A stretch of DNA of 64,000 nucleotides from Klebsiella phage vB_KpnM_KB57, in the sequence record NC_028659.1; one strand, given 5' to 3'. How positions within the stretch are numbered: position 1 is the first letter of the stretch; the number at the start of each line of letters is the position of its first letter. Positions 93-41,737 of the stretch are shown here, piece by piece. Position numbers and translations under genes: made by a program. Under the pieces are notes generated by a model that saw nothing but the letters and a program-made list of their open reading frames with translations, did no database searches and was not told where the DNA came from.

Positions 93-174
93 TGGCGAAG
101 GCGGCAGGATTCGAACCCGCATACTCCAATTACTCGATTAACGACGGGTTAGAAGCCCGTTGAGATACGCCCTC
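93..174 (-). tRNA. tRNA-like gene with encoded 3' CCA and T-arm GCGGG-TTCGAAT-CCTGC. Candidate anticodon arm ACGGG-CTTCTAA-CCCGT would give anticodon UCU (Arg?). D-arm not resolved.
   Basis: Reverse complement shows acceptor GAGGGCG/CGCCTTC, TTCGAAT T-loop and CCA. No ORF. Fold incomplete by eye. Confidence 0.45.
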
Positions 175-183
175 TTAAACTGA

Positions 184-258
184 TGCGCCCTCCCGGACTC
201 GAACCGGGAACCCTGGGGGCTTAACACCCATGCCTCTGCCAGATTGGACCAAGGACGC
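184..258 (-). tRNA. tRNA gene (anticodon unresolved). T-arm CCCGG-TTCGAGT-CCGGG. CCA not encoded.
   Basis: Acceptor pairing GCGTCCT/AGGGCGC with one GU pair, canonical T-loop, ORF-free region. Confidence 0.5.
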
Positions 259-423
259 AAAGCATTTATGTGCTGCGACTCTCTCAAAACACTTGTCGGG
301 AGAAGGTCAAGAAATATCCGCGAAATACCCCTATCGTCACACCCTATGCAATGTCTGTCGTTTCGGTTTGCAACCCTTGCGACTTCTATTCCAAATGGAG
401 AAAGCCCAGCCATAAATGTTTTG

Positions 424-533
424 TGGAGCAGGGTGGTGGAATCTAACCACCTATGTATTCTCCACCGCACGTATGTAGCGGGGATATTTTCAGGTCTGGA
501 TGGACCTCGCGGTTGACAAACCGCCTACCCTGC
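424..533 (-). ncRNA. tRNA-like element. Encoded CCA and T-arm GGTGG-TTAGATT-CCACC at the 3' end, but the distance to the best 5' acceptor partner is ~110 nt. A tRNA with an insertion, or another structured RNA.
   Basis: Acceptor ACCCTGC-T-CCA at 424-433. Complementary GCAGGGT at 527-533. Internal hairpin AGGTC-CATCCA-GACCT with a 6-nt loop. No ORF. Confidence 0.3.
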
Positions 534-535
534 AT

Positions 536-610
536 TGGCTTCTCGAACAGGAATCGAACCTGTACCGTCCCTATCGTGGGACCGCTCTAACCAAAGTAAG
601 CTATCGAGAA
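536..610 (-). tRNA. tRNA gene. Anticodon loop ACGATAG, candidate GAU (Ile), with an atypical C at position 33.
   Basis: Acceptor TTCTCGA/TCGAGAA, D-arm GCTT..GAGC, anticodon stem GTCCC/GGGAC, T-arm ACAGG-TTCGATT-CCTGT, encoded CCA. Confidence 0.55.
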
Positions 611-616
611 ATTGTT

Positions 617-692
617 TGGTGCTCGCAGTAGGACTTGAACCCACGACCTTCTCCTTACAAGGGAGTTGCTCTACCAACTGAGCTATACGAGC
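617..692 (-). tRNA. tRNA-Thr (anticodon UGU)
   Basis: Clean cloverleaf: acceptor GCTCGTA/TGCGAGC, D-arm GCTC-AGTTGGTA-GAGC, anticodon loop CTTGTAA, T-arm GTGGG-TTCAAGT-CCTAC, disc A, CCA encoded. Confidence 0.7.
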
Positions 693-1093
693 AAGAAATG
701 CTGTTTCCGATTAACAGCCTGGAGGAGTCAGTTAGCCATATCTTGTGAGCTAAGATCCTATATCCAGGATTTAAGTAATCAAAGAAATTTTAGCTTTATG
801 GTTTAGAAGTTTCAAGTTTAAACATTAAGCTTTGAACGATAATCTTTGAATGTTGAATGTTGAAGTCTTTCGAATTCGCGATTCGACAATTTCGATCAAA
901 CCGCATCATTGTGCGGACTGACGGAAACATACGTTTAAGTATCATCCTGTACGATTATGTTCGGAGCAGTTTAACCTCCGGCCCCGGTAGAGGCAAGATG
1001 TTTCTGACTTCGCTAACCAAAAACAGCATTTAAAAACTTTACCAGCTATCCGCAGGAATTACAAGATGTTAATCAAGAATTCCTGCAAATATT

Positions 1094-1741
1094 TTAGATT
1101 GATCCTTCAATCTCTACTTCAGTCCGTGCATTTGACTCGGAAAGAACAAAGTCAACGTTAGACTTAAAGTCTTCAATCTCTGCTTCCAGAGAACGAATGC
1201 GATCTGCCAGACCCAGTGGGTCAACAATGGAAGGAGTTCCCATGCTACGAACTGGCGCTTCTACTACAGCCAACTGTGCAGCGTCTGGCGCTTTATCACG
1301 TTGGACATATGGAGCACGAGCAGCTTCAAGCTTCGCCTCGAATTCCTGTGTATCACGGTTCAGGCGAACCTGAGCATGATTATACTGAGACTTCAGTTTG
1401 CCAAGCAGAAGCTCTTTGAAAACGATGGTGCGTTTACGTTCAATCGCCTGAGCTACGGTCATAGACTCGCCAGCGATCTCAACTTTTGTTACAGCGTTTG
1501 ACTGAACAACTTTCGCCTTCAGGTCGTCGCGAACAGCCAGAAGATCCTGAACACCCTGGAAGTCTGCCTGAGCAGATTTCTCGAAGTCCTCAACGCTCTG
1601 GATAGAGCCTGGGATCTGACGGTTTGCGTCAGTGCCTTTCGCGATGTGAATCGTGTTCAGCGCTTCGATACGCTTCTGAATCTTTTCCTCAACCTTGGTC
1701 AGGGTAGCCAGAGCGCGGGTTACAGACATCTTAGTAGACAT
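1094..1741 (-). CDS. Hypothetical coiled-coil protein (215 aa)
   Basis: Long ORF with strong RBS GAGGAG upstream of the ATG. Charged heptad-like sequence. No recognisable catalytic motif. Confidence 0.6.
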   Translation of the reverse strand: MSTKMSVTRALATLTKVEEKIQKRIEALNTIHIAKGTDANRQIPGSIQSVEDFEKSAQADFQGVQDLLAVRDDLKAKVVQSNAVTKVEIAGESMTVAQAIERKRTIVFKELLLGKLKSQYNHAQVRLNRDTQEFEAKLEAARAPYVQRDKAPDAAQLAVVEAPVRSMGTPSIVDPLGLADRIRSLEAEIEDFKSNVDFVLSESNARTEVEIEGSI

Positions 1742-1815
1742 AGAATTCTCCTCTCATGAAATTTAAAATTTGAGTTACTTCAAATATTTGCCGACATCCG
1801 TGTCGGCACTACGCA

Positions 1816-2427
1816 TTAGTTTTTGCCAGTGTTGACAACAACGCCCTGGCGGTTAGCATCAGCTTTTGCGATTTCCAGACGGGTTTCGCGTTCAGCCTTC
1901 AGATCACCACGCGCTGCTTCAAGCTGTTCTGTCAGCATTGCAATACGGTCATCCTTAGCCTTGCTATTCGCAGTAAGTTCTGCAATTGCAACCTTGTGAG
2001 CAGATTCCAGATTTGCCTTAACCGCATTCAGTTCGATTGCAGCGCTACGTTTAACGTCGGCAACTGCGCTTTCTACAGCTTCAGCATTGTTCTGCTGAGA
2101 GATCGCCAGCTCTGCACGAAGGTCTTCAACAACACCCGGTTCTACAGCTACAAGGCCGCGAGCTTTCAGGATAGAATTCAGAACGGAATCTTCGTTTTCC
2201 AGAACTTTGATCTTCAGCTTGGATTTTTCTTCTGCCAGTTTTTCGTTGAACTGAACTTCAATTTGTCCCAGTTCCTGCTGCTTAAACTGAATTTCCTGAC
2301 TGATCTTTTCAGACCCTTCTGCCAGAGATTGCAGTTCAGCGACTACTTTAGTCAGACCAGTAGCGGCAGTGGTTACTGCTTTAGTGGCACGTTCAGTTAC
2401 GGAAATTACAGTTTTAGAATCAGTCAT
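1816..2427 (-). CDS. Hypothetical coiled-coil protein (203 aa)
   Basis: ORF with RBS AAGGAG. Minus-strand promoter TTGACA-N17-TAGTAT immediately upstream. Confidence 0.6.
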   Translation of the reverse strand: MTDSKTVISVTERATKAVTTAATGLTKVVAELQSLAEGSEKISQEIQFKQQELGQIEVQFNEKLAEEKSKLKIKVLENEDSVLNSILKARGLVAVEPGVVEDLRAELAISQQNNAEAVESAVADVKRSAAIELNAVKANLESAHKVAIAELTANSKAKDDRIAMLTEQLEAARGDLKAERETRLEIAKADANRQGVVVNTGKN

Positions 2428-2458
2428 TAAGTTCTCCTTTGCGTTAAATTAGGTTTAA

Positions 2459-2487
2459 ATACTACACTTACAGATTGTGTTTGTCAA
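2459..2487 (-). promoter_or_regulatory. sigma70-like promoter (TTGACA-N17-TAGTAT) for the 1816-2427 gene
   Basis: Reverse complement reads cTTGACAaacacaatctgtaagtgTAGTAT. RBS and ATG follow ~25 nt downstream. Confidence 0.5.
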
Positions 2488-2605
2488 GCGAATCTTTGAT
2501 TATTTCTTCGGTGGTAGGGTTGTTTTCAAACCATGACCAATAATACCAAAGAACAAGCAGGAAAGAGATCACTGACATGATGATAAAGATAACACCGCCA
2601 CTCAT
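2468..2605 (-). CDS. Possible small membrane protein (45 aa, MSGGVIFIIMSVISFLLVLWYYW...)
   Basis: Short ORF with ATGA start/stop overlap to the 2602-2838 ORF and a hydrophobic helix. Overlaps the promoter above, so uncertain. Confidence 0.3.
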   Translation of the reverse strand: MSGGVIFIIMSVISFLLVLWYYWSWFENNPTTEEIIKDSLDKHNL

Positions 2606-2838
2606 CGTACAACGTCCTTAATGGAGTCACAAACTTCACCAACGACGCCTGCGGTAGGTGATACGATAATCTCATCAGCGGCGTCAAGAACTTCTGCGGC
2701 TACATCTACAAAAGGTTCTGCAACAGTTGCCGTGACAACAACAGCAGTACCAACAATATCGCCAGCCATACGTAACAGGGATCCGAACATTTCGTTCTCC
2801 TTTTGGTTTAGATTTGAAACGAGAGCACTTTCGTCCAT
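2602..2838 (-). CDS. Hypothetical small Gly/Val/Ala-rich protein (78 aa)
   Basis: ORF in the tRNA interval. Composition suggests membrane or structural character. Confidence 0.45.
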   Translation of the reverse strand: MDESALVSNLNQKENEMFGSLLRMAGDIVGTAVVVTATVAEPFVDVAAEVLDAADEIIVSPTAGVVGEVCDSIKDVVR

Positions 2839-2918
2839 TTAAGCTATCGCCCTGTGCCACTACGCGAGCCGGGCCAGCAAGAACGGGAGTCGAACCCGTA
2901 TCTCTCTCATTTCAAACT

Positions 2919-2994
2919 TGGTGGGGCATGAAGGATTCGAACCTTCGACCTTCGGCTTAAGGGGCCGCTACACTAACCGCTGTGTTAATACCCC
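2919..2994 (-). tRNA. tRNA gene. Anticodon loop CCCTTAA (candidate CUU Lys, but position 33 is C). CCA encoded.
   Basis: Acceptor GGGGTAT/ATGCCCC, D-arm ACAC-AGCGGTTA-GTGT, T-arm GAAGG-TTCGAAT-CCTTC. Confidence 0.55.
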
Positions 2995-3055
2995 GAAAAC
3001 ATGCCCGTGTTTTTAAAGACGTTTCACGGAATCGTCATTCCCCATGCCGGAGAAA

Positions 3056-3367
3056 TTACTTTTTCTTCTTACTCTTCGTGGCTACGGTTTCAACAACCTT
3101 AGTTTCCTTTACCTTACCAGCACGTTCACGCTTGGTCTTGCCTGTGCGGATGCGGTAAGAAGCAGAGATAATCTGACCACCTTCAATCCGGGTTTCGGAT
3201 TTATACTCTCCTTTACGGCGATCGAAAACTGATACGGTTTTCTCTACACCACCGAGACGCACATCGTGCGGCGCAGAATGAGTCTGAGTAGACTTCGACT
3301 CAAACTGGAAAGGCTGTTTGATAGCGTCGATGGCGGATACTTTCTTAGCAGTATTTTTCTTAGTCAT
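3056..3367 (-). CDS. Lysine-rich basic protein (103 aa). Possible nucleic-acid-binding or abundant virion/internal protein.
   Basis: ORF with RBS AAGGAG and its own TTGACG-N17-TAGTAT promoter. Very basic C-terminus (KSKKKK). Confidence 0.6.
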   Translation of the reverse strand: MTKKNTAKKVSAIDAIKQPFQFESKSTQTHSAPHDVRLGGVEKTVSVFDRRKGEYKSETRIEGGQIISASYRIRTGKTKRERAGKVKETKVVETVATKSKKKK

Positions 3368-3420
3368 AATTTTCTCCTTTGCATTTTATTTGGGAATTTG
3401 TCCCGTTTATGTTCATGAGG

Positions 3421-3449
3421 ATACTAACTCAATCAGATATCCTCGTCAA
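3421..3449 (-). promoter_or_regulatory. sigma70-like promoter (TTGACG-N17-TAGTAT) for the 3056-3367 gene
   Basis: Reverse complement reads TTGACGaggatatctgattgagtTAGTAT. Confidence 0.5.
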
Positions 3450-3459
3450 CATTTTTAAT

Positions 3460-3537
3460 TGGTGGCCCCCGGAGGATTCGAACCTGCCTACCTCTCGATT
3501 ATGAGTCGATTGCTCATACCTAATGAGCTTGAGGGCT
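3460..3537 (-). tRNA. tRNA with anticodon CAU (Met or lysidine-Ile). CCA encoded.
   Basis: D-arm GCTC-ATTAGGTAT-GAGC, anticodon stem TCGA/TCGA with loop CTCATAA, T-loop TTCGAAT, acceptor GGGGGCC-A-CCA. Confidence 0.55.
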
Positions 3538-3539
3538 TA

Positions 3540-3612
3540 TCGTTCAGAGTGGAATTGAACCACTGACCTTGTCCGTATGAAGAACCTGCTCTACCAACTG
3601 AGCTACTGAACG
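3540..3612 (-). tRNA. tRNA, candidate anticodon CAU (loop TTCATAC). CCA not encoded.
   Basis: Acceptor CGTTCAG/CTGAACG, perfect D-arm GCTC-AGTTGGTA-GAGC, T-arm AGTGG-TTCAATT-CCACT. Confidence 0.5.
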
Positions 3613-9221: not shown

Positions 9222-9457
9222 GCAGACTTGCAAAACTAAACAGAAGAAAGAAAATGTTGAAAGAGAAGCAGAAAAACATCACGGCTACTTTCCAAGTATG
9301 CCGAGAGGCTATGAAGGCAAATTTGATAACACCTTCGCAGAGACAGTTGATCCGTGATATTCTTCGTCCTGTACTCCACGACCTTGAAGGTGAAGTTCGT
9401 GATGTTACACTTCATATTCAAGAGGAACTTGTAAAAAGATATCAGGAGGATACATGA
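9218..9457 (+). CDS. Hypothetical protein (79 aa)
   Basis: ATGA overlap coupling. Confidence 0.45.
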   Translation: MSRLAKLNRRKKMLKEKQKNITATFQVCREAMKANLITPSQRQLIRDILRPVLHDLEGEVRDVTLHIQEELVKRYQEDT

Positions 9458-10047
9458 TCGACCACGTCACGTCAGACACGCATTGGTGGCATACCAACAT
9501 CCTTGGTTTCCCATCGTGTGATAAATTCCGTAAGAACCTGTACGGTCCAAAAGAAGACCGTGAAAGTCTGTATGCCATGAATGCAGGCATGATTGAAATC
9601 TGGAATAAGCACGTCAAACCAGATGATGTCGTAGCACATCTTGGTGATTTCGTGATTGCTTACGGACGCTATATTGAGCCTCGTGTTCGTGACATCCTTG
9701 AAAAGATCAACGGAAAGATCATTCTCGTTGGTGGAAATCACGATAACCGTGATACGAAACGTATCTTCCGTGAGTTTGGTCATGAAGTTGTTGATTATAA
9801 AGAGATTGACTTTAGCACAGGGAAAGAGAAGGTGCGGGTATGTATGTCTCACTATCCGTTTGCATCGTGGAACAAAGCACACCACGGGTCAGTTATGTTG
9901 CACGGGCATAGCCACGGCTCCTATACGGCCCCTGGTGGACGTATTCTGGATGTTGGCTGGGATGTACATGGTCGTCCTCTTACGATGCGTGAAGCCGTCC
10001 TGATGTGCCTCAAAAAACCAATCTACACTGCTGACCACGGAGAATAA
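9454..10047 (+). CDS. Calcineurin-like metallophosphoesterase (197 aa). Candidate RNA 2',3'-cyclic phosphodiesterase / 3'-phosphatase.
   Basis: Motifs GDFV (GDxxD), GGNHD (GNHD), HGHSHG (GHxH). Confidence 0.65.
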   Translation: MIDHVTSDTHWWHTNILGFPSCDKFRKNLYGPKEDRESLYAMNAGMIEIWNKHVKPDDVVAHLGDFVIAYGRYIEPRVRDILEKINGKIILVGGNHDNRDTKRIFREFGHEVVDYKEIDFSTGKEKVRVCMSHYPFASWNKAHHGSVMLHGHSHGSYTAPGGRILDVGWDVHGRPLTMREAVLMCLKKPIYTADHGE

Positions 10048-10048
10048 G

Positions 10049-10405
10049 ATGCATAACAAAGAACGGAATTTCATAGCACGTAACACGGCGAAGTCTTTCT
10101 TCGCCACTATTCATATCGCCGGGGACTATACTCAGGCAAAGAATCTTTGTCGTCAGTGGGTTATGCAAGGTGCTTGTGTGCAGATTTCCCCATGCACTTA
10201 TATCTACACAGGCGGTGCGGAAGAGGGTATGACTGTTCGGTTAATGCAGTATCCGCGTTTCCAGAGAACTGAGATTGAAATCCTTGAGATGGCTCGGGAG
10301 TTGGGAACTTACCTCGCTCAAGAGCTTTGCCAGATCAGTTTCAGTATTGAAACACCTTACAATACCACTTATTACCAAGCTGAGGGATACGATAAGCGCT
10401 CATGA
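10049..10405 (+). CDS. Hypothetical protein (118 aa)
   Basis: ORF packed between neighbours. Confidence 0.45.
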   Translation: MHNKERNFIARNTAKSFFATIHIAGDYTQAKNLCRQWVMQGACVQISPCTYIYTGGAEEGMTVRLMQYPRFQRTEIEILEMARELGTYLAQELCQISFSIETPYNTTYYQAEGYDKRS

Positions 10406-10605
10406 AAATACACAACATAACCAAAGACAGGATTCATTTCATAATGGATTCAGGAGCTTACGGATCTATCTCCAAGGCAGATGCCATGAAATTTCTGTAT
10501 GCTTCAAATATTCCTCAGGCAAAGCTTGACTCCCGTTCAGGAGAGTGTATTATTGACTCTATCACGAATATACAAGACCTGTGGGAGATATATCATGAAG
10601 TTTAA
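10402..10605 (+). CDS. Hypothetical protein (67 aa)
   Basis: ATGA overlap. Confidence 0.4.
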   Translation: MKIHNITKDRIHFIMDSGAYGSISKADAMKFLYASNIPQAKLDSRSGECIIDSITNIQDLWEIYHEV

Positions 10606-11557
10606 TGTTGACGATCTGGTCGCTAAAAATCTGGTAACCAAAAAGACTTACACCGAAGGCCCGTTCGCGGGTCTGTCTGTGCTGAAGTATAAGAACAATG
10701 TGTTCTGGGATAACCTGTGGCATACTGACCCACGCCTGCTTGAGTGCCGTGGCATGGTTGTTGATTCAGAAGACAACGTGATTATCTGGCCTTTCACTAA
10801 GATTTTCAACCGCTTCGAGAATGGAACTGACCTTCCTCTTGACAAACCGGTTGTTTGTTCCCGCAAGGTCAATGGTTTTATGGCCACAGCGGCAATACAC
10901 AAAGACAAGCTCCTCGTTTCAACAACAGGGACATTGGATTCTGAGTTTTCAGAATTGGCTCGTAAGTACCTCGAAAAAATGAATTTTGATCTGATTTCTT
11001 TCCGTGAAGATTACACTTTCATTTTCGAAATATGCGATAGCAGCGACCCACATATTGTGGAAGAGAAAGAAGGTGCTTATCTGATTGGTGTCCGTGACCT
11101 CGCTTTAAACGGTGTTATGGTTGAAGAGCACAAACTTGATCGCATCGCTGAAGTGATCGGTGCAAAACGTCCTCAATGGGATGTCCGTGCATTTGGCGAT
11201 GTCGTTGCAGCCAGTCATGCTGTTAGCCACGAAGGTTTTGTTGTCCGAAATATCGGGACAGATGACGAAAATAGCGAACTACTTTTGAAAATCAAGTCCC
11301 CACATTACCTGGCGAAGAAATTCCTGATGCGTGGAGGTGATAACAAGTGGGATATGATCTGGGATAACCCGAAAGAGGCCAAGAAGCGTATTGACGAAGA
11401 GTATTACGAGTTGCTAGACCATATTCGTGAGTATTACTCTAAAGATGTTTGGTCCGCGATGGATTCTCAAAAACGACGTCAGGTTGTTGAAGATTACTTC
11501 GCTATCGAAGACATGTTTGATCGTGGTAGTCGTTTTTATGTTGGGGTTCCAAAATGA
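10595..11557 (+). CDS. ATP-dependent RNA ligase (Rnl-type covalent nucleotidyltransferase, ~320 aa)
   Basis: Nucleotidyltransferase motifs: I KVNG, III FIFEIC, IV EGFVVR, V LLLKIKS. Size fits Rnl2. Confidence 0.6.
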   Translation: MKFNVDDLVAKNLVTKKTYTEGPFAGLSVLKYKNNVFWDNLWHTDPRLLECRGMVVDSEDNVIIWPFTKIFNRFENGTDLPLDKPVVCSRKVNGFMATAAIHKDKLLVSTTGTLDSEFSELARKYLEKMNFDLISFREDYTFIFEICDSSDPHIVEEKEGAYLIGVRDLALNGVMVEEHKLDRIAEVIGAKRPQWDVRAFGDVVAASHAVSHEGFVVRNIGTDDENSELLLKIKSPHYLAKKFLMRGGDNKWDMIWDNPKEAKKRIDEEYYELLDHIREYYSKDVWSAMDSQKRRQVVEDYFAIEDMFDRGSRFYVGVPK

Positions 11558-11898
11558 TTATCTGGCTTGATGACCTGAGAGATCCAAAAGACTACGGGTA
11601 TCCTGATGCCTTGTGGTTCAAGACCTCTCAGAAATTTATGGACTTTCTGGACAACAGGTCAAAGTTCTATCGTTATGTCACAGAGTGGCATTTCGATAAT
11701 GACCTTGGGGAAGGGTCAGAAATGGAGGGCTATGACTGCCTGTTGGCCTTGGAAGAGAAGCTTGTGTATGGAAAACTTCCTGTGCATGATGCTAAACTCT
11801 ATGTCCACACGTCTAACCCTTCTGCGGCACAAAAGTTCATGCTTGCAAAAGAGAGCTTCTTGAAGTATCGTATCACGATCTTAAGAAACAATTACTGA
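11554..11898 (+). CDS. Hypothetical protein (114 aa)
   Basis: ATGA overlap. Confidence 0.45.
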   Translation: MIIWLDDLRDPKDYGYPDALWFKTSQKFMDFLDNRSKFYRYVTEWHFDNDLGEGSEMEGYDCLLALEEKLVYGKLPVHDAKLYVHTSNPSAAQKFMLAKESFLKYRITILRNNY

Positions 11899-11907
11899 GG
11901 AGAAGAG

Positions 11908-12312
11908 ATGGAAAAGACTCTGATTATCCTGCGTGGTGTGTCTGGTGCGGGTAAGTCTACAGTTGCTGAGACAATCGCTGGTAAAGCATGGCCTGTGTTT
12001 GAGGCCGATAAATACCATTATCGGGACGGGGTTTACGACTGGAAGCCTGAAAACATGGCTGTTGCTCATAAGTGGTGTCAAGAACAGGTACGTGAGGCTA
12101 TGGTGTGCCGTATTGCAAAAATTATCGTATCCAACACTTCGACAACAGAGAAGGAACTAAAACCCTACATTGCCCTTGCTGATGAGCACGGATACCAAGT
12201 TATTAGCTTGGTGGTCGAGAATAGGCATGGTAATGATTCTATTCACAATGTTCCGCAGGAAACTCGTGATGCTCAAGAGCTTCGTCTGCGTAACTCATTG
12301 AAATTACAGTAA
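11908..12312 (+). CDS. P-loop polynucleotide 5'-kinase-like protein (134 aa)
   Basis: Walker A GVSGAGKST. Downstream IIVSNTSTTEK resembles the T4 Pnk kinase-domain motif. Confidence 0.5.
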   Translation: MEKTLIILRGVSGAGKSTVAETIAGKAWPVFEADKYHYRDGVYDWKPENMAVAHKWCQEQVREAMVCRIAKIIVSNTSTTEKELKPYIALADEHGYQVISLVVENRHGNDSIHNVPQETRDAQELRLRNSLKLQ

Positions 12313-12320
12313 GGAAAGAT

Positions 12321-12545
12321 ATGTATAAAGGAAATAACCTACGGGAATCGTTCGAAAATTGGTGGGACTCTCTTAGCGATCCTTGGTCAACACCAGAAGC
12401 AAAATCTGCTGCATGGGAAGCCTGGAAGTTTTCAAATTTACGAGTTCTTAATAAAATTCGTTATATGAAAGGTATTACCGAGCGGTGCAATGGTTATAAT
12501 GAGGCTATGAATGAGATAAATAATGTTATAGGGGAAAATCCATGA
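12321..12545 (+). CDS. Hypothetical protein (74 aa)
   Basis: ORF. Confidence 0.4.
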   Translation: MYKGNNLRESFENWWDSLSDPWSTPEAKSAAWEAWKFSNLRVLNKIRYMKGITERCNGYNEAMNEINNVIGENP

Positions 12546-13318
12546 GACGTCTTATCGTTATAAGTGGTGCTGGCTTCTCTGCGGAGAGTGGTGTACGTAC
12601 ATTCCGCACAGATACTGAATCTGGTAAAGCCCTGTGGGATGAATACGACCTTGAGGAGGTTTGTAACATACACGCCTTCCGTGGTAACTTCTACCATAAA
12701 ACGCACATGTTTTATAACAAGCGTCGTGCAGAGTTACCAACGGTACATCCGAATGCGGCGCATCTTCGCGTGGCTGAGTGGTACAGACGTTATCCTGGGC
12801 AGGTTGTTAACATGACAACTAACGTTGATGACCTTCTGGAACGTGCGGGTGTCCCTAAAGAAGATACTCTTTACATCCACGGGTATCTGAAAGAAATTCG
12901 ATACAAGCTCCATGAAGATTCTGAAGAGCAGTTGGTTGACATCGGTTACGATGAGGTAGACCCCGACCAATTTCATTGGTGTAAACCAAACGTAGTTTTC
13001 TTTGGTGAGAATGCTCCGGCCTATGGCCCTATGAATGATACCTTGGAGTCATTGACAAATCAGGATCTTGTAATTGTTGTAGGCTGTTCAAATACAGTTA
13101 TTAACTTCAACTGGGAGTTGTTCCCTGCGGTTATGCGGGGGACCAAAGTTGTTGTTGTTAATCCTGCTATTAGGTATGATGAACAAATGATGTATGAGAA
13201 TGCGGGTGTTCTTGTATATCGTACCGGAGCTGTTGATGCCTTTAATAATCCAGGCCTTATCAAGATAGTTGAGAATCACCTTGAAGGTAAGACACCATTG
13301 CAAAGCAAGGAGAAATAA
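12542..13318 (+). CDS. SIR2-family (sirtuin-like) NAD-dependent protein
   Basis: N-terminal GAGFSAESGVRTFR matches Sir2 GAGIS.ESGIP.FR. HPNAAH (PN.AH) and TTNVDDL (TQNIDGL) motifs present. No obvious CxxC..CxxC zinc ribbon. Confidence 0.65.
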   Translation: MRRLIVISGAGFSAESGVRTFRTDTESGKALWDEYDLEEVCNIHAFRGNFYHKTHMFYNKRRAELPTVHPNAAHLRVAEWYRRYPGQVVNMTTNVDDLLERAGVPKEDTLYIHGYLKEIRYKLHEDSEEQLVDIGYDEVDPDQFHWCKPNVVFFGENAPAYGPMNDTLESLTNQDLVIVVGCSNTVINFNWELFPAVMRGTKVVVVNPAIRYDEQMMYENAGVLVYRTGAVDAFNNPGLIKIVENHLEGKTPLQSKEK

Positions 13319-14631
13319 TGCAACAAGTAAACAGTACACTGTACGCCCTTAATAAAGATGGTTCTTTCCAGTGTTGGAAGGTGTTTATTGCTGGTAATCA
13401 GGTAGTTGTAGAGTTTGGCAAGGTTGGTGGTAAGAAGCAACAAAAGGTTACCACCTGTGAACCGAAGAACGTTGGACGTTCTAACGAAACCACCGCAGAA
13501 CAGCAGGCATTGGCTGAGGCGGTTTCCAAATGGGAGAAACAGGTTCGCCTTGGATATCGTGACGATACAAGTAAGCTTGAGCAGGAAGAGAACTTCTCCC
13601 CAATGCTGGCCCATGATGCAACTAAACGTTCAAAATCAATAGTTTATCCTGCATACGTGCAACCTAAGCTCGATGGTGTACGTGCTCTGGTTACTCTTGA
13701 TGCAGATGGCTTCCCACAATTCAATAGCCGTGGTAACAAACTGTATCCTGTACCGCTTGATTCTGAGTTGTCTGAACAGGTTAAATCCCTTTCTGAGCAT
13801 TCAGGGTTTGACAAATTCGATGGGGAGCTGTACATTCATGGTCTGAGTCTGCAAAAGATTGTCGCTCTTGCTAAGAAGTGGCGTACACCAGAGCAGATCG
13901 AGGAAGAGATTGAAAAGGATTATCAGTCTGACCTGAAGCGCCATCAGAAAGCTATTGACAATGGGGAAGACAGTTGGAAAGATTTCGATGGTGATGTTTA
14001 CTCTGTCGCGATCGAACCAGTTAAAGATGTTGATCGTTATGGCGGCTATTCAAGCCTTGACCTAGAGTACCATATCTTTGACATTCCGTGTTCAAATAAA
14101 CCCTGGATGATTAACGATGGGATTTCAGACTATACAGATAAGGAGTGTCGATACAAAGACCTTATGGACACTGACCACTTCACCTCTGTTATTAAAGCAG
14201 ATAAAATAAATGTGGTCCAAGGTAATGTCTTTGACACTGAGGATGAGGTTAAGCAATCAATCGGACATTTTATGCAGCAAGGCTTTGAGGGTGCTATCAT
14301 CCGAAATTTCAAAGGTGTCTATGAATTTGGTCAGCGATCTTCTGATCTCCAGAAATGGAAACTTTTCCAAGACGGCGAGGCTAAAGTCCTTGATTCTGTG
14401 GAAGATAAGAACGGTGAGGGTGTATTACTCTGCGAAGAGAAAGATGGTACACGTTTCAACTGTAAAATGAAGGGAACCCACGCAGAGAGATCTCAGGAAC
14501 GAATGCTCCTGCTGGTGGGTAAGTTTATTAACTTCACGTTCCAAGCTAGAACTGATGATGGTGTTCCTCAGTTCCCTGTGGGCCAAAGCGTTCGTGAACT
14601 CGATACATTAACATGGGAGCCTGTATACTAA
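13318..14631 (+). CDS. ATP-dependent DNA ligase (437 aa)
   Basis: Motif I PKLDGVRAL (KxDG), size and position within a DNA-metabolism operon. Confidence 0.55.
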   Translation: MQQVNSTLYALNKDGSFQCWKVFIAGNQVVVEFGKVGGKKQQKVTTCEPKNVGRSNETTAEQQALAEAVSKWEKQVRLGYRDDTSKLEQEENFSPMLAHDATKRSKSIVYPAYVQPKLDGVRALVTLDADGFPQFNSRGNKLYPVPLDSELSEQVKSLSEHSGFDKFDGELYIHGLSLQKIVALAKKWRTPEQIEEEIEKDYQSDLKRHQKAIDNGEDSWKDFDGDVYSVAIEPVKDVDRYGGYSSLDLEYHIFDIPCSNKPWMINDGISDYTDKECRYKDLMDTDHFTSVIKADKINVVQGNVFDTEDEVKQSIGHFMQQGFEGAIIRNFKGVYEFGQRSSDLQKWKLFQDGEAKVLDSVEDKNGEGVLLCEEKDGTRFNCKMKGTHAERSQERMLLLVGKFINFTFQARTDDGVPQFPVGQSVRELDTLTWEPVY

Positions 14632-17422: not shown

Positions 17423-18305
17423 GAATATCAAACGCGTAGTATTTGCTGGTCTGATCGCCCTGGGTGCAATTGGTCTGACTGGTTGTGAACGTGCAACTGT
17501 TCCGGCGGGTTATGTGGGCGTTAAGGTTGACCTGTATGGTGATGAGAAAGGCGTTCAGCAGCAAGAAGTTGGCGTTGGTAAGTATTGGTTAACCTGGAAC
17601 GAAGAGATCTATCAGTTCCCGACGTTCAACCAGTTGAACAACTACGAACAACCGTTTAACTTCCAGACCAAAGATTCTATGACGGTTACTGCGAAGATCG
17701 GTGTTGAGTATTACGTTGACCGCTCTAAGGTTACCAAGATCTTCCAGACCTACCGTAAAGGCGTCCAGGAGATTACCGATGTCAACATTCGTCAGAATAT
17801 CTCTGATGCGTTGATCAAGGAAGCGGGTACAATGGACATTGGTACACTGGCTGGTGATGGTAAATCTCAGCTTCTGGACCGAGTGACCAAGACCCTGAAG
17901 CAGAAACTTGACCCGGTAGGTATCGTTATTGTGAAACTGTCTTACACTGATGACCTTGGTTATCCTCCTCAGGTAACTGCGTCCATCAACGCTAAGATCG
18001 AAGCGACTCAGAAAGCGCTGCTGCGTGAAAACGAAATCCAGCAGACTAAAGCTGAAGCTCAGAAACAAATTGAAGCAGCTCGCGGTGAAGCAGAATCCCA
18101 GCGACTGCAAGCTCAGGGCCAGGCAGATGCTAAAGTAGCTCTGGCAAAAGGTGAAGCAGAATCCATCCAACTGCGTGGTGATGCTCTCCGTAAGAACCCT
18201 GAAATCATGCAACTGGAAGCGATCAACAAGTGGGACGGTAAAACCCCGACCATTATGGGTGGCAACGGTGCAGTACCTTTCGTAAATCTGCCAGCAGGTA
18301 AGTAA
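17415..18305 (+). CDS. SPFH/Band-7 (prohibitin/HflK-like) domain lipoprotein
   Basis: Lipobox LTGC after a signal peptide. Central SPFH-like region and C-terminal AEAQ/coiled-coil repeat typical of the HflK/stomatin family. Confidence 0.65.
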   Translation: MLKNIKRVVFAGLIALGAIGLTGCERATVPAGYVGVKVDLYGDEKGVQQQEVGVGKYWLTWNEEIYQFPTFNQLNNYEQPFNFQTKDSMTVTAKIGVEYYVDRSKVTKIFQTYRKGVQEITDVNIRQNISDALIKEAGTMDIGTLAGDGKSQLLDRVTKTLKQKLDPVGIVIVKLSYTDDLGYPPQVTASINAKIEATQKALLRENEIQQTKAEAQKQIEAARGEAESQRLQAQGQADAKVALAKGEAESIQLRGDALRKNPEIMQLEAINKWDGKTPTIMGGNGAVPFVNLPAGK

Positions 18306-18307
18306 AG

Positions 18308-18336
18308 GTTGACAAAAGGCCCGGTGATTAGTATCA
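18308..18336 (+). promoter_or_regulatory. sigma70-like promoter TTGACA-N17-TATCAT overlapping a hairpin
   Basis: TTGACA at 18308-13, TATCAT at 18331-36. Inverted repeat CCCGGTGAT/ATCATCGGG. Confidence 0.5.
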
Positions 18337-18367
18337 TCGGGTCTCTACTTACAAAAGGAGATACACA

Positions 18368-18562
18368 ATGATCCGCACAAAAATTCTTATCGCAGCATTG
18401 CTGCTCTCTTCTCCGGTATTCGCAACTGTAAACACTCTCGATTTGGTTGATGAATATACCAACGGCAGCTCTAAGGTCTGCGTTTACAGCGACGGTCATC
18501 GAACAGAGACTGTAACAAAAGATGGCGCTGGTTCTTGTCCAAGTAAGAAAACATTTCATTGA
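18368..18562 (+). CDS. Small secreted protein (64 aa) with signal peptide
   Basis: N-terminal MIRTKILIAALLLSSPVFA signal. RBS AAGGAG. Confidence 0.5.
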   Translation: MIRTKILIAALLLSSPVFATVNTLDLVDEYTNGSSKVCVYSDGHRTETVTKDGAGSCPSKKTFH

Positions 18563-18569
18563 GGGAATA

Positions 18570-19076
18570 ATGCGAGTAACTGATAAATACGTCTTTTTCT
18601 TCACTTACCGGGATATGTTCAGTAATCACTACCGCCAAGTTATTCCTATTCGTTGTGGTGGTTACGAGTTTTTCACTGTAGAACATTACATGATGTTCCA
18701 GAAGGCAATGCTCTTCGATGACAAAGAAATTGCTTCCCGTATCGCTACGGTTGATAACCCTAATGAGGCCAAAGCTCTTGGTCGTCAGGTAAAAGGTTTC
18801 GACAACAGCGTCTGGGAAGAAAATAGAATGGATATAGTGACTTCAGGTCTTGTATTGAAAATGAAGGCCAACAGATCTGTTCTCGAAGCTGCTCTTGGGC
18901 ATCGAGATGCTGGGCGTAAGTTTGTGGAAGCCTCCCCTTATGATGCCATCTGGGGTGTTAAATTAAACGAATATGACACACGTATCGATGACCCAACCAA
19001 CTGGCGTGGTTTGAATCTTCTCGGTAAGTGCTGGGAACGAGCTATTGATATTGTTGTTGCTGCAACGTGGAGGTGA
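18570..19076 (+). CDS. NADAR (YbiA-like, DUF1768) domain protein. Predicted ADP-ribose / N-glycosidic hydrolase.
   Basis: FFFTYRDMFSNHYRQ...GGYEFFTVEHYMMFQKAMLFDD...AKALGRQV...WEENR...ASPYDAIWGV matches NADAR family hallmarks (F.SNF...F.T.EHY.QA.KF...LGR...W.....SP.D.WG). Confidence 0.65.
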   Translation: MRVTDKYVFFFTYRDMFSNHYRQVIPIRCGGYEFFTVEHYMMFQKAMLFDDKEIASRIATVDNPNEAKALGRQVKGFDNSVWEENRMDIVTSGLVLKMKANRSVLEAALGHRDAGRKFVEASPYDAIWGVKLNEYDTRIDDPTNWRGLNLLGKCWERAIDIVVAATWR

Positions 19077-19515
19077 TTTGAAATTAGAGATTGAACTAGT
19101 TCCAAAGACCGCGTGGTTTACTAATCTCCGATCTCGTCTCCCCAAAGCCCAGTGGGATGTTGTCAGAAAGAAGTGTTATGCTAAGGCCAATTATCGATGT
19201 GAAATCTGCGGGGGCAAAGGAACAAAACACCCTGTTGAATGCCATGAGAAGTGGAATTTCGGAGACGGTAAGATAACTCTGATAGGTCTAATCGCGCTAT
19301 GTCCTTCCTGTCATGAAGTCAAGCATATTGGTTTGGCAGGGATCCGTGGGCGTGGTGAAATTGCCCTTCGTCACTTTATGAGAGTGAATGAAGTTAGTCG
19401 CCCTGTGGCAGAGAAATATGTTAAGGAAGCGTTTGATTTGTATCATGAACGAAGCAAGCGCGAAAAGTGGGAATTGGATGTCCGGTATTTGGACGAGTAT
19501 TTGAGTAAAGATTGA
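19045..19515 (+). CDS. HNH endonuclease
   Basis: CEICGG...HPVECHEKWNF...LCPSCHEVKH: CxxC + His + Asn + CxxCH. Start uncertain because of overlap with the upstream gene. Confidence 0.55.
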   Translation: MILLLLQRGGDLKLEIELVPKTAWFTNLRSRLPKAQWDVVRKKCYAKANYRCEICGGKGTKHPVECHEKWNFGDGKITLIGLIALCPSCHEVKHIGLAGIRGRGEIALRHFMRVNEVSRPVAEKYVKEAFDLYHERSKREKWELDVRYLDEYLSKD

Positions 19516-20645
19516 GAGGGCTAGTGGGATATCCGTATGATAAAGATTGGAAAAATAAAGTCACAAAAGACTGCGTATTAGCTTTGGATCTCGACCAGAC
19601 ATGCTTTGTATCAGCCGCTGGTGCTGAAAAGCGTACAATTGAGGTCACTCACATTGAGTCTGGAAGAACAAAGATTTTCAAAAACAGGACTGAGTTTTGG
19701 GGATCGACAAAGAAAGTTGTCGGTGGATGGATCAAAGACCAAAACATGAACATGGAGGCGAAGGCAAAGGCCGAAGGCCGAGTGTTTGTACCGTGGGGTA
19801 GGGATGACTTCACGATTAAAGACATTCAGGAACCGGAACCTGTAGAAAACTGCCTTCATATCCTGAAGACAAAGATCAATGCTATCTTTGAACACCTTGA
19901 GATGGAAAGCAATACAGGGATGGGTGTACTTGGTGGTGAGGGTAACTTCCGCCTTATGCTCCCAGCTCCAGAGCGTTACAAGGGTAATCGTGAGGATACA
20001 TTACGCCCACTCCTTCTTCAGGAAACAAGGGATTATGTTACCCGGAAGTATAACGCTAAGGTGATCAATGGTGTTGAAGCAGATGACTATCTGTCTGTTC
20101 TTGCTTATATGGGGTGGGAGAATTACCAGAAGACCGGGAAGTTCAACTACATCGTGGCATCGTTTGATAAAGACCAGAAAGGAAACCCTGGGCTTATCTT
20201 CGATACTATGCGCGATTCAGAAGAGAAGACATGGAAGCACCCGATCCCTATGTTGATCGACGATTCGATGGGAGAGATCTGGATGGAAGGTAGTAAGGTC
20301 AAGGGATGGGGACGTAAGTTCTTCGGTTACCAGATGCTTTGCGGTGACAGCTCAGATAACATCAAGCCTTACCAGTGTTTCGATATCGCTGGACGTTTCG
20401 GTGATACGGCGGCATTCAATCTGATCGGACACCTTCAGGATGAGAAATCCATGTGGCAAGCGATCATTAACCAGTATAAAACCTGGTTCCCGAACGGTGT
20501 TGAGTTTACTTCGTGGGACGGCACACAACGGAAAATGAGTGCAGGCCAGTGGGCATCTATCATCTTCCAGATGGTCTACATGAAACGTTCTGCAAATGAT
20601 AAGACAACCCTTTCAAGCGAGTTACGCCGTGTGGGGGTTATATGA
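19512..20645 (+). CDS. FEN-family 5'-3' exonuclease / flap endonuclease (T4 RNase H / T5 D15-like)
   Basis: N-terminal VLALDLDQT and GVEADDYLSVLA (G.EADD motif of 5'-3' exonucleases). Confidence 0.6.
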   Translation: MRGLVGYPYDKDWKNKVTKDCVLALDLDQTCFVSAAGAEKRTIEVTHIESGRTKIFKNRTEFWGSTKKVVGGWIKDQNMNMEAKAKAEGRVFVPWGRDDFTIKDIQEPEPVENCLHILKTKINAIFEHLEMESNTGMGVLGGEGNFRLMLPAPERYKGNREDTLRPLLLQETRDYVTRKYNAKVINGVEADDYLSVLAYMGWENYQKTGKFNYIVASFDKDQKGNPGLIFDTMRDSEEKTWKHPIPMLIDDSMGEIWMEGSKVKGWGRKFFGYQMLCGDSSDNIKPYQCFDIAGRFGDTAAFNLIGHLQDEKSMWQAIINQYKTWFPNGVEFTSWDGTQRKMSAGQWASIIFQMVYMKRSANDKTTLSSELRRVGVI

Positions 20646-20962
20646 TTGATAACTTAATCATGCAGGCAGTTATGAGGGATGCTGAGGCGCTGGCTGTTCC
20701 CAGCGTCAAGGGTAAATTCTTAGTCGCCACAGGATTGTGGCGCATGGTTGAGTCTGGTGATGATTGCTATGTGATTTTCACTGATGACTATACTGATCCG
20801 AATGTTGCATTCACCGTATTGCTTCTGGATAATTGCGAGCTGGTAGAAGGTGAGAAGCTGTTGATGTTAACAAGCGTTTTGCTAGACACTCAAGAATTCT
20901 CGCTTGTTGTCTTCAAGGACCAAAATGACTCGGAGGTAACCGATGAAGCTGATGTCGGTTGA
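20642..20962 (+). CDS. Hypothetical protein (106 aa)
   Basis: ATGA overlap. Confidence 0.45.
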   Translation: MIDNLIMQAVMRDAEALAVPSVKGKFLVATGLWRMVESGDDCYVIFTDDYTDPNVAFTVLLLDNCELVEGEKLLMLTSVLLDTQEFSLVVFKDQNDSEVTDEADVG

Positions 20963-21557
20963 TCAGAGTCTTAGCCATTGTGCTGTTGTCATATTCGATG
21001 ATGGAGTGCCTGTTTACCGGGAAATGATCAGAACAGGCTCAAACAATAGCAAGAGCAAGAAAAACAAGGATGTTATTTATTTTGACAATGTTCATGAACA
21101 GATTAGGTTCATTGTTGGCAGAATCCTTACTTTGGCTGAAGAACATCGGATTGACAAATATGTTATGGAGGCCCTTAGCCTTAGTTCTATCGGCAGCGCC
21201 ACTCGGGATTTGGCTGGTCTGTTCTACTGTATTGTGTACGGGTTGTATCAGTCAGCAATTTTGGGGTATCAAGCGATCCATACTGTAGCCCCTACCTCTG
21301 TGAAGGCTTATGCCAGAGCACTTTTGCCTGAATCAGAACGCACAGTTGTTAAAGAAAAGGTTGACAAAAAGACCGGGAAAAAGGTATACTCAACAGGTCA
21401 GGTTAAAATGGAAAAATCGCACATGGTGAGAGCAGTAGATTGTGATTTTCCAGGTTGGCTTGATGGAATGACTCTTGCCGCCGGAAAGGCTGACTACGCA
21501 GATGCATATTTGATAGGGAAGAAGTTCTTGGAGGATATATCCGTAGGAAAAGAATAA
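20943..21557 (+). CDS. RuvC-like Holliday junction resolvase (tentative)
   Basis: N-terminal Asp (SVDQS), MEAL Glu, and C-terminal ADYADAYLIG resembling the RuvC D.ADA..IA motif. Confidence 0.45.
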   Translation: MKLMSVDQSLSHCAVVIFDDGVPVYREMIRTGSNNSKSKKNKDVIYFDNVHEQIRFIVGRILTLAEEHRIDKYVMEALSLSSIGSATRDLAGLFYCIVYGLYQSAILGYQAIHTVAPTSVKAYARALLPESERTVVKEKVDKKTGKKVYSTGQVKMEKSHMVRAVDCDFPGWLDGMTLAAGKADYADAYLIGKKFLEDISVGKE

Positions 21558-40663: not shown

Positions 40664-41737
40664 ATGATGGAAAATTTCGAAGTGATGCGATGCCACTCAG
40701 GAAGTTTGGCTTATGGCACAAATCTGCCAACTAGTGATGTGGATATCCGGGGTCTGTTCTGCGCCCCTCCTAAATTCATTCGCACACCGTTCTTTAACAT
40801 TAAAGAGCAAACACTGGAAGACGAAGAGGATGGAAAGATTTATGAGCTGACAAACTTCATGAAGTTGTTTGCTGAGATGAATCCTAACATTATCGAGCTG
40901 ATGTTTGTCGATGATGTGGATATCCTGCAAACCTCCGAAGTTTATGAATACCTACGCACAATGGCTCCGGCGCTGCTGACAAGTAAGGTCGCATTTTCCT
41001 TCTCTGGCTATGCGATGGCACAGCTTAAGCGTATTCGCGGTCATGATAAGTGGATCAGCAATCCTCAGCCAGAGGCAAAGCCTACGCAAAAGGAGTTCTT
41101 CCGCTTAGTTCACAACTATAGTGAGAACGAGTTCCTTGCTGGGGCAATTAAACATGATCGTTTCATGGAAGCAATGAACAATCTCAACGATATGTGTATC
41201 CTTGTGCCTTATGGGAATGATATCTACGGGGTGATGGAAAACTTCAGCAGCTCAGGGATGTTCAATGCTGACGGTTCAATTCGCCATGTTGACTATCAGC
41301 AACTTTCTGACTCCGACAAGCGGAGAAAACCTGTCTTTATTGTCAAATATTTGGCAGAGGAACACAAACAGGCCAAAGAGAAGCATCGTAACTATTGGAC
41401 ATGGAAACAGAACCGAAATGAAGTTCGTCACCAACTCGAAGTTGATTTTGGTTATGACACGAAACATGCGATGCACCTTGTACGCCTGATGCGTATGGCA
41501 GAAGAGATTCTTTCTGATGGGAAGGTCCTCGTGAAGCGTCCTGATGCTCAGGAACTTCTCGATATCCGGGCGGGTAAGTGGACGCTTGATGAGCTACTCT
41601 CATGGGCTGATGAGAAGGATCGCTATATCCGTGAGGATTTGTACAAAAAGACACAGCTTCCTAAAATGGCGGATCTCGACCTGTTTGCTAGGGTTCTCAT
41701 GACGGCTCAGGATATGTGTTGGAGTAAACTGGTATGA
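40664..41737 (+). CDS. Pol-beta-superfamily nucleotidyltransferase-fold protein (357 aa) of unknown specificity
   Basis: N-terminal GSLAYGTNLPTSDVDI = minimal NTase signature [GS]-x9-13-DxD. Long helical C-terminal domain. Confidence 0.5.
   Translation: MMENFEVMRCHSGSLAYGTNLPTSDVDIRGLFCAPPKFIRTPFFNIKEQTLEDEEDGKIYELTNFMKLFAEMNPNIIELMFVDDVDILQTSEVYEYLRTMAPALLTSKVAFSFSGYAMAQLKRIRGHDKWISNPQPEAKPTQKEFFRLVHNYSENEFLAGAIKHDRFMEAMNNLNDMCILVPYGNDIYGVMENFSSSGMFNADGSIRHVDYQQLSDSDKRRKPVFIVKYLAEEHKQAKEKHRNYWTWKQNRNEVRHQLEVDFGYDTKHAMHLVRLMRMAEEILSDGKVLVKRPDAQELLDIRAGKWTLDELLSWADEKDRYIREDLYKKTQLPKMADLDLFARVLMTAQDMCWSKLV

Follow-up and report, generated by a model that had tools for sequence, protein, structure and literature searches.

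A stand-alone NADAR-domain protein of Klebsiella phage vB_KpnM_KB57 and its probable role against DarTG1

In a stretch of 64,000 nucleotides (nt) from Klebsiella phage vB_KpnM_KB57 (record NC_028659.1; hereafter the window), the open reading frame (ORF) at 18570-19076 is a real gene and encodes a NADAR-domain protein. The reading that we favour, to which we give a probability of about 0.68, is that this protein acts as a stand-alone ADP-ribosylglycohydrolase and counters DarTG1 by stripping ADP-ribose (ADPr) from guanine. Its two parts are not equally firm: that the protein is an ADP-ribosylglycohydrolase appears very likely, and that DarTG1 is what it acts against appears probable. Family, fold and residues are documented below for the protein itself; its presumed chemistry is that of its homologues and its presumed biological target that of AdfN(Bas60), a related phage NADAR that has been assayed.

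Results

Only NADAR profiles and folds match the product of the gene. The first-pass annotation, made from the letters of the window, had called it a YbiA-like NADAR protein, and the NADAR assignment is borne out by profile search, predicted fold and residue conservation. The Pfam model PF08719 covers residues 15-156 (E 4.4e-35; 121.8 bits, with a gathering cut-off of 35.1 bits), and the PHROG match is to a family of NADAR proteins (phrog_1017, E 1e-52). When the single sequence was searched against the PDB, the only matches were 8BAU, the NADAR of Phytophthora nicotianae (PnNADAR; E 2e-15), and 2B3W, which is YbiA (E 2e-4). With a profile of the 28-sequence family these rose to E 1e-34 and E 4e-18 respectively, and the DarG1 structure 8BAT gave no match to this profile at E≤1. 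An AlphaFold2 model built on the 28-homologue alignment reached a mean predicted local distance difference test score (pLDDT) of 97.2 and a predicted template modelling score (pTM) of 0.91. Compared with the PDB by Foldseek, this model retrieved 8BAU with a template modelling (TM) score of 0.82 and 2B3W with a TM score of 0.76, and nothing else below E = 1. The term YbiA-like therefore holds for the shared NADAR fold and not for closeness to YbiA, the general NADAR family represented by 8BAU being much nearer. Likewise, the NADAR motifs quoted in the annotation are present, though with a different spacing: FSNHY at residues 17-21, EHYMMFQK at 38-45 (an E-x6-K motif), LGR at 70-72 and SPYDAIWG at 122-129.

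The active site is intact as well. In PnNADAR, ADPr is bound by E43, K50, K75, R79, Y84, D86, W89, R93, E125, D130 and W133 (Schuller et al. 2023, PMC11543638), and HMMER and multiple alignment place at these positions E38, K45, K68, R72, F77, N79, W82, R86, E120, D125 and W128 of the window protein. Invariant in the 28 homologues are E38 (E43 of PnNADAR), K45 (K50), K68 (K75), R72 (R79), W82 (W89), E120 (E125), D125 (D130) and W128 (W133); R86 is not invariant. Mutagenesis of the NADAR of E. coli C7 found E88, K95 and D171 to be catalytic and K115 to be required in vivo against DarT1 (PMC11543638). The E-x6-K pair E88/K95 of C7, E43/K50 in PnNADAR, is present as E38/K45. The third acidic position is occupied by a glutamate, E120, as in the general and YbiA families, and not by the histidine of T4-type NADARs, and the residue two before it is F118 (local K-F-V-E120) and not the aspartate of DarG1 (D171 in C7). 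K68 is the equivalent of C7 K115; the lysine is found in AdfN(Bas60) too, whereas YbiA has an alanine there. That a lysine at this position tracks protection from DarT1 in vivo, YbiA having alanine and not protecting, is suggestive only.

How close is this protein to the phage NADARs that have been assayed? Bas60 (Escherichia phage PaulScherrer, a phi92-like Justusliebigvirus) has a single NADAR-like gene, bas60_0111 (QXV83846.1), labelled 'putative YbiA-like N-glycosidase', and because it is the sole NADAR match in the Bas60 genome we take it to be the assayed AdfN(Bas60). Over the full length, the window protein and bas60_0111 share 42% identity (E 1e-37). Both are stand-alone phage NADARs of about 170-180 amino acids (aa) with the E/K/K/R/W/E/D catalytic set, both are without the extension that DarG1 has at its N-terminus and belong to the non-YbiA, non-DarG1 group, and both phages are large enterobacterial myoviruses. 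They differ in that Bas60 has Y at the position of W128, in that the Bas60 gene is preceded by an FtsH-like/ATPase gene and the gene of a CapR-domain protein whereas that of the window lies between a small secreted-protein gene and an HNH-exonuclease block, and in that the Bas60 protein has been assayed and the window protein is known from its sequence. In a distance tree (500 bootstraps, with capped distances, the T4 sequence being very divergent), the window NADAR groups with those of Seunavirus SSE121 (59% identity) and Septuagintavirus A5-4 (49%) with 94-95% support, and the Bas60 NADAR groups with that of phAPEC8 with 99.8% support. Strict orthology to AdfN(Bas60) was rejected, since the genomic context differs and the sister grouping has a bootstrap of 34%; by sequence, the window protein nevertheless shares with AdfN(Bas60) a broad group from which members have been assayed.

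The similarity to other well-studied NADARs is of varying depth. PnNADAR is the best match of solved structure and its ADPr-contacting residues are conserved, but it comes from a eukaryote, and the identity to the general NADAR family (including SCO5665 and the sigma70-linked EcNADAR) is 28-33%. AdfN(T4), or gp30.3, is likewise a phage orphan NADAR encoded in an early gene region, and its anti-DarTG1 role has been demonstrated; unlike what was seen for AdfN(Bas60), it needs T-even infection for full activity. No BLAST-detectable similarity connects the window NADAR with T4 gp30.3, and gp30.3 in turn did not retrieve 8BAT when searched against the PDB. In the window, as in T4, a few kilobases (kb) separate the NADAR gene from a DNA ligase gene. 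With DarG1 (E. coli C7 and G. lovleyi 8BAT) the window protein shares the superfamily, the predicted hydrolysis of guanine-linked ADPr and the lysine equal to C7 K115; it differs in having no adjacent DarT1, in a domain that starts at the N-terminus of the 168-aa protein, with no extension before it, and in a catalytic acid that is predicted to be Glu120, with F118 at the position of the DarG1 aspartate. With YbiA it has in common the fold, the E-x6-K motif and the glutamate at the third site, but the identity is 24-29%, and YbiA has a housekeeping role in riboflavin damage and gives no protection from DarT1 in vivo (PMC11125620).

Relatives are abundant in bacteria as well. In a genome scan, bacteria such as actinomycetes, myxobacteria, Pseudomonas, Burkholderia and Xenorhabdus yielded at least 598 loci, with identities of 39-51%. 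The PADLOC candidate-defence model PDC-M42C matches both the window NADAR (E 4e-29) and AdfN(Bas60) (E 2e-34), and both also match, weakly, the NCBIfam model NF053876, 'NADAR family anti-phage protein'. Because of these matches, close bacterial relatives can be placed in putative anti-phage systems.

A longer version of the gene, beginning at ATG 18522, is unlikely because homologues begin with MRVTDKYVFF and M1 is nearly invariant. Two minus-strand ORFs antisense to the locus, 18113-18604 and 18471-18686, have no support and were taken as spurious.

The NADAR gene is the second one of a tightly packed operon (Table 1). The first, a small ORF that is 81% identical and in the same position in SSE121, had been announced as a small secreted protein, and it does carry a putative Sec-type signal peptide, recognised by eye and hydropathy, with cleavage after MIRTKILIAALLLSSPVFA and before TV; two cysteines lie in the mature part. 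Upstream of it stands a sigma-70-like site whose two hexamers and most of whose spacer are identical in SSE121, and this probably drives the small ORF, NADAR, the HNH endonuclease gene, the exonuclease gene and later genes. The promoter that had been attributed to the NADAR gene itself thus exists as a near-consensus site, but it is not private to NADAR because it lies 5′ of the small ORF, leaving NADAR as the second cistron. Shuffling predicts 0.23 occurrences of the pattern TTGACA-N17-TATNNT in the window; 7 are observed, and 6 of these sites are on the plus strand (8402, 18309, 26165, 31023, 33177 and 47954); this excess suggests a set of strong host-type promoters for the gene block. A general promoter scan of the window was not enriched over shuffles. 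A GC-rich stem-loop overlaps the promoter just after the stop of the lipoprotein gene (RNA fold of -19.4 kcal/mol, z = -3.5 compared with shuffles). Its stem is conserved in Salmonella phage SSE121, its loop differs and no U-tract follows it; it could serve as an operator, as a stabilising hairpin or as something like a terminator.

Downstream, the HNH gene starts at a TTG one base past the NADAR stop, in agreement with the annotations of phages vB_KpnM_NDO71 and SSE121, and the location of its Shine-Dalgarno sequence inside the NADAR gene suggests translational coupling. An exonuclease gene, a small ORF and a RuvC-like gene follow it without gaps (19512-21557). From the first small ORF through the RuvC-like gene no terminator is predicted, and the Rfam scan of the window found tRNAs only, with nothing near the locus.

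The first-pass annotation had also pointed to the HNH nuclease after NADAR. Its presence is confirmed by phrog_5200 (no Pfam match was obtained for the product at E≤0.01), but a functional tie to NADAR does not follow. Indeed, 235 phage records contain this HNH gene, roughly a hundred of them being rV5-like genomes, and in the rV5-like phage Bas51 it stands before the exonuclease gene at the same locus with no NADAR. For these reasons it counts among the core genes of the Vequintavirinae, and a partnership with NADAR is not indicated. A NADAR-HNH functional module was considered, as the pair is kept in Mydovirus, Seunavirus and Septuagintavirus, and was rejected, as HNH occurs without NADAR.

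The same arrangement is recognisable in related phages. The locus region is 99.2% identical to that of Klebsiella phage VLCpiM5b and around 98% identical to those of vB_KpnM_NDO71, KpS8 and Seu621, all of them, like the lytic phage of the window itself, Mydovirus (Vequintavirinae). SSE121 has, in this order, the lipoprotein gene, the small secreted ORF, an additional small ORF, and the NADAR, HNH, exonuclease, RuvC-like and EndoVII genes, and the order in the window is the same minus the additional small ORF; in A5-4, NADAR is followed by a homologous HNH gene (57% identity) and then by the exonuclease gene. NADAR is found at this locus in Mydovirus, Seunavirus and Septuagintavirus and is absent from it in rV5-like Vequintavirus. 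It is, in other words, an accessory gene inserted in a conserved replication/recombination block that runs from the lipoprotein gene to HNH, exonuclease, RuvC and EndoVII. When the window is compared with SSE121, it has also diverged further than any of its immediate neighbours: its identity is 59%, and theirs are 92% (lipoprotein), 81% (small ORF), 88-89% (HNH), 86% (exonuclease) and 84% (RuvC-like protein). Variable presence and faster divergence fit a gene under pressure from host defences, as in an arms race. No ADP-ribosyltransferase (ART) gene was seen in the NADAR unit or among the flanking genes, and the NADAR is thus an orphan, without a cognate DarT toxin.

In phi92-like and phAPEC8-like phages NADAR sits elsewhere, after an ATPase/FtsH-like gene and a CapR-domain protein, and this difference suggests independent placement or acquisition. 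The window has, at 43840-45486 on the minus strand, a 548-aa ORF with two CapR homology domains and a DUF723, which is 30-36% identical to the protein directly before NADAR in those phages (bas60_0110, phAPEC8_00253). No counterpart was seen in the stretches of NDO71 compared, and the ORF is probably a mobile, endonuclease-like insertion.

Database names for the gene are inconsistent. The NDO71 annotation calls it 'NADAR family protein' and the next gene 'HNH endonuclease', and a 100% identical NCBI protein carries the name 'NADAR family protein [Klebsiella phage vB_KpnM_KB57]'. In other GenBank records it is 'GTP cyclohydrolase II' or 'hypothetical protein'. The record of the Mydovirus Klebsiella phage K23PH08C2 (OY757067.1) has an annotation that is out of register, with most coding sequences (CDS) pseudo or partial and product names that mismatch the genes; the label 'nicotinamide-nucleotide adenylyltransferase' that it places over the region belongs to such mis-registered pseudo-CDS features and was disregarded.

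Table 1. Positions of the NADAR gene, its operon and other features in the 64,000-nt window
Feature	Position	Strand	Remarks
NADAR gene	ATG 18570 to TGA 19074-19076	+	168 aa; predicted ADP-ribosyl-guanine N-glycohydrolase, AdfN-type
Shine-Dalgarno GAGGG of the NADAR gene	18561-18565	+	read from the sequence; overlaps the small-ORF TGA 18560-18562
Promoter-like site, sigma-70 type, TTGACA-17 nt-TATCAT	18309-18337	+	11/12 consensus positions; upstream of the small ORF
Stem-loop, 12 bp, GC-rich, GGCCCGGUGAU-UAGU-AUCAUCGGGUC	18317-18344	+	directly follows the stop of the lipoprotein gene; overlaps the -10 hexamer and the spacer of the promoter
Small ORF, 64 aa	18368-18562	+	opens the unit; phrog_4641 (a family of unknown function), E 5e-31
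HNH endonuclease, 145 aa	19078-19515	+	phrog_5200, E 9e-74; co-transcribed downstream of NADAR
Shine-Dalgarno GGAGG of the HNH gene	19069-19073	+	read from the sequence; within the last NADAR codons
NAPRTase-family gene, 577 aa	4995-6728	-	42% identical to Bas63 Namat, E 1e-130; GenBank nicotinate phosphoribosyltransferase
Phosphoribosyl-pyrophosphate (PRPP)-synthetase-like gene, 266 aa	6736-7536	-	42% identical to Bas63 Adps, E 1e-51; GenBank ribose-phosphate diphosphokinase
Metallophosphoesterase	9454-10047	+	RNA-repair/NAD-related cluster 9454-14631
Rnl1-like RNA ligase	10499-11557	+	RNA-repair/NAD-related cluster
AAA_33 kinase-like protein	11908-12312	+	RNA-repair/NAD-related cluster
Sir2-family protein	12542-13318	+	RNA-repair/NAD-related cluster
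ATP-dependent DNA ligase	13318-14631	+	RNA-repair/NAD-related cluster
RlaP RNA-repair nucleotidyltransferase	40664-41737	+

Elsewhere in the window, the NAPRTase-family and PRPP-synthetase-like genes look, from their similarity to Bas63 Namat and Adps, like a NARP1 NAD+-reconstitution operon, of the type that counters NAD-depleting defences. A tRNA cluster occupies 96-3612 on the minus strand. ARAGORN predicts six genes in it, one with an irregular anticodon loop at 536-610; Rfam also gives six, including one at 96-174 that ARAGORN missed and not that at 536-610. Most of their counterparts in the NDO71 record are annotated on the strand opposite to that of the NAPRTase-family gene, a difference that may be an annotation error.

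Discussion

Which ADP-ribosylation would this protein remove? Every NADAR subtype tested so far removes guanine-ADPr (G-ADPr) from DNA in vitro and leaves thymidine-ADPr in place (PMC11125620), and G-ADPr hydrolysis in vitro by the tested subtypes is also reported in PMC12945103. Beyond guanine the subfamilies diverge, since general-family and YbiA-type NADARs also remove cytidine-ADPr (C-ADPr) and act on RNA, whereas DarG1s and the T4 AdfN do not remove C-ADPr (PMC12945103). In phages, T4 gp30.3 was shown to overcome DarTG1 and to remove ADPr from phage DNA (Johannesman et al. 2025, PMC11825919). The same study assayed two further, unrelated phage NADARs, those of T5-like Bas32 and of phi92-like Bas60-62: AdfN(Bas32) and AdfN(Bas60) neutralise DarT1 without infection or other phage factors, and they let RB69, T5 and Bas25 plate again on DarTG1, whereas T5 is not rescued on DarTG2. 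The suggestion of the first-pass annotation that the KB57 protein is an anti-DarTG countermeasure is thus supported by assays on relatives, above all AdfN(Bas60). It has to be narrowed from DarTG in general to DarTG1, and not DarTG2, because no tested NADAR reverses thymidine ADP-ribosylation.

A model of how the protein might work can be outlined on this basis. During infection of a host carrying DarTG1, the DarT1 toxin would attach ADPr to the N2 of guanine in phage DNA and replication would stall. The NADAR protein would then bind the ADPr on guanine N2 in single-stranded or replicating phage DNA, with K45, R72, W82, R86 and W128 contacting the pyrophosphate and F77 stacking on the adenine. 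E38 and E120 would bracket the distal ribose and promote hydrolysis of the C1″-N2 bond. Free ADPr would be released and guanine restored, so that replication could resume despite active DarT1. On this view the protein would be an orphan, antitoxin-like enzyme of counter-defence, akin to the AdfN proteins. Expression would come from the host-type, sigma-70-like promoter within a block of DNA replication and recombination genes, a setting that suggests early or middle expression; such timing would suit the enzyme because lesions must be cleared from the template.

Several observations weigh against this model. Neutralisation of DarT1 has been demonstrated for the T4, Bas32 and Bas60 proteins only, and for no Mydovirus NADAR; the two phage clades that hold the window and Bas60 proteins are united with a bootstrap of only 34%, and bacterial NADARs of unknown role, at 39-51% identity, are equally close. 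Activity in vitro does not always mean protection either, as YbiA and T4 gp30.3, though active in vitro, fail against DarT1 in uninfected cells, and the sigma70-linked EcNADAR gives partial protection only (PMC11125620). General-family NADARs also remove C-ADPr and act on RNA, and DarT1 lesions are maybe not the sole or main substrate (PMC12945103). Finally, literature searches on DarTG1 in Klebsiella gave nothing specific, which bears on the relevance that we presume for this system in the hosts of the phage, and the NARP1-like pair and the Sir2 gene leave room for a metabolic role.

Part of this evidence can be accommodated if the protein is a broad nucleic-acid de-ADP-ribosylase whose main targets are other lesions, either C-ADPr or G-ADPr on RNA and DNA, made by pierisin/ScARP-like or unknown Klebsiella ARTs, with neutralisation of DarTG1 as one facet or an incidental effect. 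The window NADAR does group with the general family in the profile searches, nearest to 8BAU, then YbiA, with no match to 8BAT; that family removes G-ADPr and C-ADPr from DNA and RNA (PMC12945103), and the authors of the AdfN study themselves suggested that phage NADARs may detoxify other ADP-ribosylating defences (PMC11825919). We nonetheless hold this to be unlikely, if worth bearing in mind, as no defence system that makes C-ADPr or G-ADPr on RNA is known in enterobacteria, and the sole in vivo phenotype of a relative is anti-DarTG1 (PMC11825919). A bolder version, which we rate as equally tentative, is that the Vequintavirinae NADAR clade, whose active site is that of the general family, is not dedicated to DarT1 and erases nucleobase-linked ADPr in general, from guanine and cytidine in DNA and RNA alike, against undescribed Klebsiella ART defences, and that the ADPr released is possibly recycled to NAD+ by the NARP1-like pair; if true, it would link a repair counter-defence to a metabolic one. 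Before the experiments, Iyer et al. had predicted a role for NADARs on soluble ADPr and in NAD metabolism, and an enzyme that cleaves N-glycosidic bonds of soluble ADPr derivatives, such as immune signals of the cyclic ADP-ribose (cADPR) isomer type or by-products of RNA repair, in aid of the NARP1-like and RNA-repair genes and not of DNA repair, would be in keeping with the Adps/Namat pair, Sir2, Rnl1-like ligase, kinase-like protein, phosphoesterase and RlaP encoded in the window. These genes, however, are 5-13 kb away, Adps and Namat are on the opposite strand and none shares the transcription unit of NADAR. Moreover, the prediction predates the finding of DNA de-ADP-ribosylation for every phage NADAR tested (PMC11825919, PMC11125620), and no action of a NADAR on cADPR-type signals is on record, so that we consider this role improbable.

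The presence of Sir2 invites another thought, namely that NADAR is the partner of a phage modifier and reverses or edits ADP-ribosylation by the Sir2-like enzyme or another phage ART on macromolecules of host or phage. In its favour, NADAR and the Sir2-family gene share a strand, the latter being about 5 kb upstream, ADP-ribosylation is an activity of some sirtuins, and toxin-antitoxin systems with Sir2/ART-NADAR pairings exist; but the two genes are neither adjacent nor in one operon, phi92-like phages have NADAR without such pairing and nothing indicates that the phage Sir2 is an ART, which leaves very little probability for a partnership. Least credible of all is a YbiA-type housekeeping N-glycosidase that destroys reactive intermediates of the riboflavin pathway. 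The names 'GTP cyclohydrolase II' and 'riboflavin biosynthesis intermediates N-glycosidase' in GenBank records imply such a role, and the window protein does exceed the cut-off of TIGR02464 (125.7 bits, with a cut-off of 73.7). Yet that model does not separate NADAR subfamilies, as shown by the fact that the validated AdfN(Bas60) passes it too, with 109.4 bits. In addition, the protein is much nearer PnNADAR than YbiA, which has alanine at the K68 position, neither the NDO71 annotation nor the scanned ORFs of the window include rib genes, and it is not obvious what use a lytic phage would have for such an activity.

Action of an ADP-ribosylglycohydrolase against DarTG1 hence remains the explanation that we prefer. 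Both the annotation of the gene and, in 2025, the counter-defence role of related phage NADARs have already been published, and judging from its residues and its relatives the window protein would be a further member of a known family and not a new idea. If its predicted activity is true, Klebsiella Mydoviruses would carry an enzymatic escape from DarTG1-type abortive infection. These phages are used in phage-therapy work, and such an activity would bear on the prediction of host range and on the choice and engineering of therapeutic phages.

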